NCBI RefSeq assembly: GCF_053078305.1
Contig: NZ_CP166879.1
Reading direction: 5' to 3' (one strand)
DNA length: 64,000 nt
Shown in pieces: positions 15,377-18,315 of the stretch (positions within the stretch are counted from its first letter, which is position 1; every line of letters starts with the position of its first letter). The notes beneath the pieces were generated by a model. That model was not told where the DNA came from. It was given only the letters and a program-made list of their open reading frames with translations, and did not search any database. The position numbers and the translations under genes were made by a program.

Positions 15377-16993
15377 ATGCTCAGTCAAATTCAACGCTTT
15401 GGCGGCGCGATGTTCACGCCAGTGCTGCTGTTTCCCTTCGCCGGGATTGTGGTGGGTCTTGCCATCTTGCTGCAAAACCCGATGTTTGTCGGGGAATCAC
15501 TGACCGATCCAAACAGTTTATTCGCGCAAATCGTACACATTATTGAAGAGGGCGGTTGGACGGTATTCCGTAATATGCCGCTGATTTTTGCTGTCGGTTT
15601 ACCCATTGGCCTTGCTAAGCAAGCGCAGGGGCGTGCTTGTCTGGCGGTGATGGTGAGTTTCCTGACCTGGAACTATTTCATCAATGCGATGGGAATGACC
15701 TGGGGAAGTTACTTCGGCGTCGATTTCACTCAGGACGCGGTGGCAGGTAGCGGTCTGACAATGATGGCCGGGATTAAAACCCTCGATACCAGCATTATCG
15801 GCGCAATTATCATTTCCGGCATTGTGACGGCGCTGCATAACCGTCTGTTCGATAAAAAACTGCCGGTGTTTCTCGGCATTTTCCAGGGGACGTCTTATGT
15901 GGTGATTATCGCCTTCCTGGTGATGATCCCCTGTGCCTGGCTGACATTGCTCGGCTGGCCAAAAGTACAAATGGGGATTGAATCTCTGCAAGCGTTCCTG
16001 CGTTCGGCGGGTGCGCTTGGGGTGTGGGTTTACACCTTCCTCGAACGTATTCTGATCCCAACCGGTTTACACCACTTCATCTACGGACCGTTTATCTTTG
16101 GTCCGGCAGCTGTTGAAGGCGGCATTCAGATGTACTGGGCGCAGCATCTGCAAGAGTTCAGTTTGAGCGCCGAGCCGCTGAAATCATTGTTCCCGGAAGG
16201 CGGTTTTGCCCTGCACGGTAACTCAAAAATCTTTGGTGCCGTGGGCATTTCTTTAGCGATGTACTTCACTGCCGCACCGGAAAATCGGGTAAAAGTGGCG
16301 GGCTTGCTGATTCCCGCAACCTTAACCGCCATGCTGGTGGGAATTACCGAACCGCTGGAATTTACCTTCCTGTTCATTTCACCGTTGCTGTTTGCGGTAC
16401 ACGCTGTGCTTGCGGCCTCAATGTCGACCGTAATGTATCTCTTTGGTGTGGTGGGCAACATGGGCGGAGGTCTGATTGACCAGGTTTTACCGCAAAACTG
16501 GATCCCGATGTTCAGCAACCACGCGGATATGATGCTGACCCAAATCGCCATTGGGTTGTGCTTTACCCTGCTGTACTTCGTGGTTTTCCGCACCCTGATA
16601 CTGCAGTTCAACATGTGTACGCCGGGACGTGAAGATGCGGAAGTGAAACTCTACTCAAAAGCCGAATACAAAGCCTCGCGAGGCCAAACCACCGCGGCAG
16701 AGCCAAAAAAAGAGCTGGATCAGGCTGCCGGTATCCTGCAAGCCCTGGGCGGGGTCGGCAATATCTCCAGCATCAATAATTGCGCGACGCGTCTACGTAT
16801 TGCACTGCATGACATGTCACAAACGCTGGATGACGAAGTCTTTAAAAAGCTGGGAGCGCACGGCGTCTTCCGTAGTGGCGATGCCATTCAGGTGATCATT
16901 GGTCTGCATGTATCCCAGCTGCGTGAACAGCTCGATAGCTTAATTAATTCTCATCAATCAGCAGAAAATGTTGCCATTACGGAGGCAGTATAA
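15377..16993 (+). CDS. glvC: PTS alpha-glucoside-specific EIICB component, full length
   Basis: ATG at 15377 ([18 protein letters not shown]); membrane EIIC domain plus C-terminal EIIB with motif NCATRLR; the upstream part of ORF 15116.. is treated as non-coding. Confidence 0.8.
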
Positions 16994-18315
16994 TGACCAA
17001 ATTCTCAGTGGTTGTCGCTGGCGGTGGAAGCACCTTTACGCCAGGCATCGTGTTGATGCTCCTGGCGAATCAGGACCGTTTCCCGCTTCGTGCACTGAAA
17101 TTTTATGATAACGATGGCGCGCGGCAGGAAGTGATTGCCGAAGCCTGTAAAGTCATCCTTAAAGAGAAAGCGCCGGACATTGCGTTTAGTTACACCACCG
17201 ATCCTGAAGTGGCGTTCAGCGACGTTGATTTTGTCATGGCGCACATCCGCGTCGGCAAATACCCGATGCGCGAACTGGATGAAAAAATCCCGCTGCGCCA
17301 CGGCGTTGTTGGTCAGGAAACTTGCGGACCCGGCGGAATAGCGTACGGCATGCGTTCCATTGGCGGCGTCCTGGAACTGGTGGATTATATGGAAAAATAT
17401 TCACCAAACGCCTGGATGCTCAACTACTCCAACCCGGCAGCCATTGTCGCAGAAGCCACGCGTCGTCTGCGCCCGAATGCGAAAATCCTCAACATCTGTG
17501 ACATGCCAATCGGCATTGAAAGCCGGATGGCGCAAATTGTTGGGCTGCAAGATCGCAAACAGATGCGCGTGCGCTACTACGGCCTGAACCACTTTGGCTG
17601 GTGGACATCAATTGAAGATTTGCAGGGCAACGACCTGATGCCCCAGCTGCGGCAATATGTCTCTAAGCACGGTTATGTTCCACCGCAGCAAGATACACAT
17701 ACTGAAGCGAGCTGGAATGACACCTATGCAAAAGCGCGGGATGTCCAGGCACTGGACCCGGATACATTGCCGAACACCTATCTGAAATATTATCTCTTCC
17801 CGGATTATGTCGTTCAGCATTCCAACCCTGAACATACTCGCGCGAATGAGGTGATGGAACATCGCGAGAAACAGGTTTTCGATGCTTGCCGCGCCATTAC
17901 GGCGGCAGGAAATTCAGCGGCGGGCAAGCTGGAAATTGACGAACATGCGTCATACATCGTCGATCTGGCGGCGGCAATTGCCTTCAACACTCAGGAGCGG
18001 ATGTTGCTGATTGTGCCTAACAACGGGGCAATTCATAACTTTGATGATGAAGCGATGGTCGAGATCCCGTGTCTGGTTGGGCACAACGGACCAGAACCAC
18101 TGGTGGTCGGCGATATCCCGCAGTTTCAGAAAGGGTTAATGAGTCAGCAAGTGGCGGTGGAAAAACTGGTCGTGGACGCCTGGGAACAGCGTTCATATCA
18201 GCACCTGTGGCAGGCGATTACGTTGTCGAAAACGGTACCGAGCGCCTCGGTCGCCAAAGCTATTCTGGATGAGTTGCTGGAGGCCAACAAAGCGTACTGG
18301 CCAGAGTTACGTTAA
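16993..18315 (+). CDS. glvG: GH4 6-phospho-alpha-glucosidase (NAD/Mn-dependent), full length
   Basis: 440-aa ORF with N-terminal Rossmann motif [13 protein letters not shown]; start overlaps the glvC stop. Confidence 0.8.

Follow-up and report, generated by a model that had tools for sequence, protein, structure and literature searches.

Does a strain of Escherichia coli with an unbroken glv locus retain a working pathway for the uptake of alpha-glucosides that the laboratory strain K-12 lacks? The question arises from a 64,000-nucleotide stretch of DNA (assembly GCF_053078305.1, contig NZ_CP166879.1), here called the window, which follows the E. coli chromosome from dnaA via gyrB, ibpAB, yidE, yidP and glv to yidLKJ. 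Between positions 15377 and 18315 it encodes an EIICB permease belonging to the phosphotransferase system (PTS) that depends on phosphoenolpyruvate, and a hydrolase of glycoside hydrolase family 4 (GH4). An initial annotation, made from the letters alone, held that both genes are unbroken, that they are translationally coupled and that they likely form a working pathway. We estimate, with a probability of roughly 0.8, that the window holds the ancestral, undamaged locus and that permease, hydrolase and the regulator YidP would work as a three-gene catabolic module in the manner proposed below.

Structure of the operon

The permease gene (15377..16993, + strand) is an open reading frame (ORF) of 538 amino acids (aa). 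Its ATG at 15377 is preceded by AAGAGGA, and the RefSeq start is identical in strains A16 and O157:H7. Its product is the same protein as WP_000952127.1, which RefSeq records for A16 and O157. PTS_EIIC (residues 10-346) and PTS_EIIB (residues 453-482) are found on one chain in a Pfam search, which gave no match to an EIIA domain in the permease. The alpha-glucoside IIBC model TIGR02005 is matched with 959.2 bits (cut-off 607.3), and the permease scores under the cut-off of each of the glucose, maltose (MalX) and N-acetylglucosamine (GlcNAc; NagE) equivalog models. Two features align with PtsG, the motif GITEP of the EIIC domain (322-326) and, within NNCATRLR of the EIIB domain, the Cys469 that can be phosphorylated. 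The permease is strongly predicted to be an alpha-glucoside-specific PTS EIICB, the unbroken counterpart of K-12 glvC plus glvB.

The hydrolase gene follows on the same strand (16993..18315, 440 aa). Its product consists of a Glyco_hydro_4 domain (PF02056, residues 6-184, E = 1.9e-66) and a Glyco_hydro_4C domain (PF11975, residues 195-415, E = 6.5e-56). It aligns without gaps to the 6-phospho-alpha-glucosidase of PDB entry 6DUX (89.5% identity over 439 residues) and to Bacillus subtilis GlvA (1U8X, 73.0% identity). We take 6DUX and 6DVV to be the Klebsiella pneumoniae enzyme; the database record names only the molecule. Bit scores are 917 and 750 against 6-phospho-alpha-glucosidases and at most 212 against 6-phospho-beta-glucosidases. 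The glycine motif that binds nicotinamide adenine dinucleotide (NAD+), GGGS at residues 10-13, aligns with the same motif in 6DUX and 1U8X. Residues C169, D170, H200 and Y263 correspond to C171, D172, H202 and Y265 of GlvA (ungapped, offset +2), of which we take C171 and H202 to be the Mn2+ ligands and D172 and Y265 to be catalytic, in the numbering of Rajan et al. 2004 and Yip et al. 2007. There is thus a strong case for predicting an NAD+/Mn2+-dependent GH4 6-phospho-alpha-glucosidase of the AglB/GlvA/MalH type, the unbroken counterpart of the K-12 pseudogene glvG.

Both genes are uninterrupted in the ORF list and translate to a single terminal stop, as initially annotated, and the GH4 domains bear out the naming of the hydrolase. 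At their junction (GGAGGCAGTATAATG) the TAA stop of the permease (16991-16993) and the ATG of the hydrolase (16993-16995) have one base in common (TAATG). A Shine-Dalgarno sequence, GGAGG at 16981-16985, lies inside the permease gene 7 nt 5' of this ATG. The overlap and the internal Shine-Dalgarno sequence agree with the coupled translation that had been suggested. The G+C content of the glv region is 51-53%, as in the flanks. The block from yidP to the hydrolase gene ends on both sides in 4-nt convergent stop-codon overlaps, with yidE at 14365-14368 and with yidL at 18312-18315.

Lesions of the K-12 locus

The window was aligned base by base (14365-19300) with the locus of MG1655, whose annotation lists glvC (b3683, 368 aa), glvB (b3682, 161 aa) and the pseudogene glvG (b4556), in line with what the initial annotation had said of K-12. 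The two sequences differ by 46 substitutions and one internal indel and are 98-99% identical outside the lesions. Permease codon 369 (16481-16483) is CAG (Gln) in the window and TAG (amber) in K-12, with C versus T at 16481; the amber codon accounts for the split into glvC and glvB. The K-12 permease differs further by P238Q. K-12 derivatives with a Gln-inserting amber suppressor (supE) would be expected to make some full-length permease, with Gln369 and still with P238Q.

The second lesion lies in the hydrolase gene. Segment 17586-18093 of the window is missing in K-12; its length of 508 bp is no multiple of three. An 8-bp direct repeat (GAACCACT), at 17586-17593 and 18094-18101, borders the deleted segment; on sequence grounds such repeats are the signature of a microhomology-mediated deletion. 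The K-12 glvG product therefore keeps residues 1-200 before the frameshift and has lost 201-367 and, with them, Tyr263 and the greater part of the C-terminal domain, and glvG is a pseudogene as a result. The alignment, which had been put forward as the way to expose a misreading of the window, located both K-12 lesions and found neither here. A misread window, interrupted as in K-12, is refuted by the ORF list, the alignment, the CAG at codon 369 and the single terminal stops.

The regulator and the control region

YidP is encoded divergently from the operon (14365..15081, - strand) and belongs to the GntR/HutC family. It has a GntR winged helix-turn-helix (HTH) domain (PF00392, residues 3-64, E = 6.8e-21) and a UTRA effector domain (PF07702, residues 87-224, E = 1.2e-30), and the protein is identical to YidP of K-12 and A16. 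On the other side yidL (18312..19205, - strand), convergent with the hydrolase gene, encodes an AraC-family regulator with HTH_AraC, HTH_18 and AraC_binding domains (Pfam). For K-12, both yidP and yidL still have the status of uncharacterised regulators (PMC9308461).

The spacer between yidP and the permease gene (15082..15376, 295 bp) is a divergent control region. A scan of 14900-15500 for promoter and terminator consensus sequences gave no match of either kind, sigma-70 included, and no promoter is assigned; a whole-window Rfam scan gave no family in the glv region. The spacer contains a 34-bp palindrome at 15198..15231, whose ungapped arms (AGAGGTCTACTTTTTCG and CGAAAACGTAGATCTCT) are 88% complementary. 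Two changes, at 15202 and 15221, make it perfect in O157:H7. The palindrome is a candidate YidP operator with the half-sites GGTCTA/TAGATC. An intrinsic terminator or attenuator was considered and rejected, as no T-run follows the 34 nt. We take the half-site core GGTCTA/TAGACC to resemble the operators of other HutC-type regulators.

A third half-site (AGAGATCTA, 15085..15093, - strand) lies on the upstream side of the yidP start codon (15079-15081), 4 bp away, and is a possible site of yidP autoregulation. TAGA(C/T)CTCT is kept here in each of the four aligned genera. The pattern AGAGRTCTA, which was set post hoc, has three matches in the 64-kb window against 0.24 expected, and all three lie in the spacer. 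A CRP-like site (CATGAAAGCGATCAC, 15248..15262, + strand) has the form CATGA-N5-ATCAC, compared with the consensus TGTGA-N6-TCACA, and is the sole match to its pattern in the window. CATGA and ATCAC are unchanged in the aligned spacers of E. coli, Enterobacter, Citrobacter and Erwinia. By resemblance this is a putative CRP site, and YidP is probably the glv repressor, acting at the palindrome.

Conservation and selection

The hydrolase family is widespread in Enterobacterales, and the GntR-EIICB-GH4 module recurs outside E. coli in three genera, of which two have it at the same place beside yidE. The order is ibpB-yidE-GntR-EIICB-GH4 in Enterobacter hormaechei, where yidLKJ is absent, and yidE-GntR-GntR-EIICB-GH4-yidL-yidK-yidJ in Citrobacter rodentium. 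Erwinia tasmaniensis carries the trio in an unrelated context. Orthologues of the GntR regulator are divergent beside EIICB-GH4 in all three genera, with 68-77% identity to the window protein; the permeases are 72-80% and the hydrolases 85-89% identical. YidP is counted as part of the glv module because the trio recurs across genera.

The same comparison revises the description of the flanks. The initial annotation had placed the operon between YidP and YidL, and both do adjoin it, but YidL tracks with yidK and yidJ. A role for YidL as the glv regulator was rejected on co-occurrence: it stays with yidKJ in B2 strains that lack glv and is absent together with yidKJ in E. hormaechei. Judged by gene order, YidL probably belongs to the symporter yidK and the sulfatase yidJ, which makes its membership of the glv module unlikely.

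Selection was examined in ten strains with a full-length hydrolase. The permease protein is identical in nine of them despite 10-25 nucleotide differences. Polymorphic codons are synonymous rather than non-synonymous by 52:2 in the permease and 37:8 in the hydrolase. The pairwise ratio of non-synonymous to synonymous polymorphism (pN/pS) against the window alleles is 0-0.06 among intact alleles. Both glv genes are under strong purifying selection among intact strains.

Distribution among E. coli genomes

The locus was counted in 5,426 complete E. coli genomes. This collection is skewed to clinical and laboratory strains, so the percentages hold for the database rather than for the species. DNA of the permease and the 5' part of the hydrolase gene is present in 4,279 genomes (79%) and the 508-bp hydrolase segment in 1,652 (30%). 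By implication about 2,627 (48%) have the K-12-type deletion or another hydrolase lesion, and about 1,147 (21%) are missing the locus. The intact form was found in O157:H7 (EDL933 and others), in B/BL21 and in many wild isolates, and RefSeq already labels the intact gene '6-phospho-alpha-glucosidase'. The exact K-12 amber 61-mer occurs in 348 genomes, and every one of the 25 among the matches listed is a laboratory derivative of K-12. A full-length permease ORF is kept by all seven deletion strains examined outside K-12. The amber codon is thus confined, among the genomes listed, to the K-12 laboratory lineage, and the 508-bp deletion is widespread.

Loss of the locus is illustrated by the B2 strain E2348/69, in which 3.9 kb (window 14415-18344) is swapped for 49 bp and 46 nt of the yidP 3' end are left. 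This remnant identifies the absence of glv in B2 as a deletion. The strain keeps yidL-yidK-yidJ without yidP-glv, and the 3' end of its yidL differs (288 aa versus 297 aa). In the list of Touchon et al. (PMC2617782), glvC is one of the genes that differ in B2 by presence or absence. The end-points of the B2 deletion fall just inside the two 4-nt overlaps, yidE/yidP and hydrolase/yidL. Other rearrangements were seen as rare alleles. STEC383 has an IS200/IS605 tnpA-tnpB element in place of yidL-yidI, beside an intact glv operon; in strain 1332KP a TnpB element interrupts the hydrolase gene; and in strain muskdeer13-4 an IS1-associated deletion runs from yidL to uhpA.

E. coli thus has three glv states, intact, hydrolase deletion and locus loss, which together form a polymorphism, and this picture is mildly new. 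Other parts are known already: the unbroken form is the ancestral one, it is common and has been annotated before, and recognition of the K-12 lesions dates back to the 1990s. Because it is ancestral, present in about 30% of complete genomes and already annotated, the intact operon amounts to an ordinary difference between strains. Mildly new, too, are the detailed anatomy of the K-12 lesions, the assignment of YidP, not YidL, to the glv module and, with partial support, the cluster of permease substitutions in strains with a deleted hydrolase.

In the genomes sampled, the permease differs between strains with an intact and with a deleted hydrolase. All eight sampled genomes with the 508-bp deletion have a substitution in a 7-residue stretch of a conserved permease motif (codons 238-244, window 16088-16108): P238Q in six, P243L in one and A244V in one, which makes at least three independent events. 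In the ten sampled genomes with an intact hydrolase this motif is unchanged throughout, and nine are without any permease change. Synonymous to non-synonymous polymorphic codons in the permease number 16:5 in deletion genomes versus 52:2 in intact ones (Fisher p = 0.016). The ancestral permease 51-mer is found in 2,139 of the 5,426 genomes and the 508-bp segment in 1,652, which leaves about 490 deletion-type genomes with an unmutated motif. A mutated motif in every deletion genome is therefore rejected. The pattern in the sample of eight is probably in part linkage, with P238Q largely one common linked haplotype. It is doubtful, in our judgement, that hydrolase loss was followed by selection on the permease, in the form of recurrent inactivation or retuning of a permease that lets toxic phospho-alpha-glucosides build up when hydrolase or repressor is missing; on this reading YidP would be the first assigned regulator of the system.

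BL21-AI (NZ_CP047231.1) is the only intact-hydrolase strain sampled with permease changes. Its permease and hydrolase are full-length and its yidP is frameshifted (about 79 bp shorter). The permease has L320P, next to GITEP, and G357S. The glv system of this strain may be derepressed but altered, and its permease changes beside a broken yidP would fit the same doubtful reading.

Proposed mechanism and alternatives

By homology with Klebsiella AglA/AglB and B. subtilis MalP(GlvC)/GlvA, the module would work as follows. The phosphoryl group of phosphoenolpyruvate would pass via EI and HPr to a IIA protein acting in trans, most likely IIA-Glc (Crr) because the permease is without a IIA domain, and from IIA to Cys469 of the EIIB domain. 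The EIIC domain would import the alpha-glucoside and release a product phosphorylated at O-6 of the glucosyl residue. The likely substrates would be methyl-alpha-glucoside, isomaltose, maltitol and the sucrose isomers isomaltulose, turanose, maltulose, leucrose and trehalulose. The GH4 enzyme, with NAD+ and Mn2+ (ligands C169 and H200; catalytic D170 and Y263), would cleave the product to glucose-6-phosphate and the aglycone. YidP would repress the operon at the 34-bp palindrome, and CRP with cyclic AMP would activate it nearby. The proposal that the pathway likely works draws support from the catalytic motifs, the 89.5% identity, the pN/pS of 0-0.06 and the conservation of the three-gene module.

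The closest known system is AglA (EIICB) and AglB (phospho-alpha-glucosidase) of K. pneumoniae, reportedly described by Thompson et al. in 2001 and Pikis et al. in 2006. It has the same arrangement, an EIICB without IIA and then a GH4 enzyme with 89.5% identity (6DUX), and the same mechanism may be expected. The systems differ in that function is demonstrated for the Klebsiella genes, by growth on sucrose isomers and transfer into K-12 as relayed in PMC5309279, whereas the E. coli genes are known by sequence. According to that paper, K-12 carrying Klebsiella aglA/aglB grew on alpha-methyl-glucoside, on isomaltose and on sucrose isomers; the glv homologues of K-12 itself are termed cryptic or truncated (PMC5309279).

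The B. subtilis glv system is similar in its GH4 enzyme, GlvA (MalA, 1U8X), which is 73.0% identical with the catalytic residues aligned, and in its EIICB, GlvC (MalP), likewise without IIA. Its gene order is glvA-glvR-glvC, with GlvR an RpiR-type activator. The window, in contrast, has the permease followed by the hydrolase and a divergent GntR/HutC regulator. The K-12 glvC-glvB-glvG locus is the same locus, with 98-99% identical DNA and an identical YidP, and differs in the amber codon 369, P238Q and the 508-bp frameshifting deletion. The cryptic beta-glucoside operons bgl, asc and chb of E. coli also combine a PTS permease with a phospho-glycosidase and have strain-variable usefulness; they provide a precedent for intact but silent genes. 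They differ in encoding GH1 phospho-beta-glucosidases (or the GH4 enzyme ChbF) and in their regulators, the BglG antiterminator, AscG and ChbR.

Several points weigh against a working module with these substrates. The literature searched gave no experimental test of the intact E. coli glv operon. Expression is unproven, given that the control region has no sigma-70 consensus. The genes crr, ptsH and ptsI lie outside the window. The substrate range is extrapolated from the hydrolase orthologue (89.5% identity) and from permeases, and the operator and the CRP site are assigned at the level of pattern, the half-site pattern post hoc.

The operon may work on a substrate set narrower than or different from that of Klebsiella AglAB, such as mainly maltose or maltitol as in B. 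subtilis, or another plant or host alpha-glucoside. We consider this unlikely. Specificity in this family sits largely in the permease, which is less conserved (72-80%) than the hydrolase (85-89%) relative to other Enterobacterales, and E. coli given B. subtilis GlvAC had a wider substrate range, with panose and isomaltotriose among the sugars (PMC5309279). The permease itself argues the other way, as it scores far above the TIGR02005 cut-off and under the glucose, maltose and GlcNAc equivalog cut-offs.

A working pathway has one main rival, in which the unbroken genes would stay transcriptionally silent (cryptic) under ordinary conditions, as bgl, asc and chb do, and would give a phenotype only after an activating mutation. 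The missing sigma-70 consensus in 14900-15500 fits this view. As a rule E. coli is also described as negative for palatinose, turanose, alpha-methyl-glucoside and maltitol, and its glv genes were called cryptic in older literature (Reizer 1994, as relayed in PMC5309279). The phenotype data found come only from the E. coli type strain, which is reported to be B2 and presumably without glv (the lineage lacks glv in the strain examined), and are uninformative. Against silence, purifying selection (52:2 and 37:8) implies regular expression in nature, and the CRP-like site and the palindrome are kept across genera, as for a regulated inducible operon. An operon that YidP represses until its inducer arrives would also look 'silent' in standard tests. 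Weighing these points, we regard silence as improbable.

Recent horizontal acquisition is rejected as extremely improbable: the locus does vary in presence in E. coli (21% without it) and has a plasmid-borne homologue in Klebsiella michiganensis, but it occupies the same chromosomal site between yidE and yidL as in K-12 with 98-99% identity outside the lesions, has typical G+C, holds the module at the same locus in C. rodentium and E. hormaechei, and left a yidP remnant in B2 strains.

Other features of the window

The window differs from K-12 at several other sites. Between yidX and cbrA, at 8435-8437, it lacks the D-galactonate operon dgoRKADT (4.75 kb, K-12 3870544-3875296), and this contiguous junction occurs in only 413 of the 5,426 genomes. 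A 3.4-kb insertion between ilvN and uhpA (28688-32086) holds ORFs at 28938..30245 (435 aa) and 30514..31986 (490 aa), whose counterparts in strain A16 are hypothetical proteins. Between yicN and nepI, some 40 bp of K-12 sequence give way to an 840-bp segment (40997-41835); the corresponding site in A16 carries a RelE/ParE toxin paired with an HTH antitoxin.

A larger island of about 19 kb (43115-62075) lies between nepI and yicS. Its ORF of 3,807 aa (43317..54740) is the counterpart of the A16 inverse autotransporter adhesin Air/EaeX. The ORF at 54792..56489 (- strand) is EilA-like, and the - strand ORFs include one whose A16 counterpart is labelled an IpaD/SipD-type type III secretion system needle-tip protein. 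Rfam matches at the gathering threshold are the AsdA antisense RNA of dnaA (511-591, - strand), the ES036 small RNA (6068-6110, - strand), the ROSE_2 thermometer 5' of ibpA (11492-11564, + strand) and istR (26242-26371, + strand), all expected for the region.

Implications

The overall importance of the finding is modest. Carbohydrate ranges and metabolic models derived from K-12 overlook a PTS pathway that about 30% of the E. coli strains sequenced, O157:H7 and B/BL21 among them, probably possess. If the pathway works, such strains could use isomaltulose, a food sweetener, as well as other sucrose isomers, isomaltose and maltitol. This would bear on niche partitioning in the gut and on the fermentation of starch-hydrolysate feedstocks, for which engineers import Klebsiella or Bacillus genes (PMC5309279). 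The analysis also offers testable roles for two orphan regulators of K-12, with YidP assigned to glv and YidL to yidKJ.

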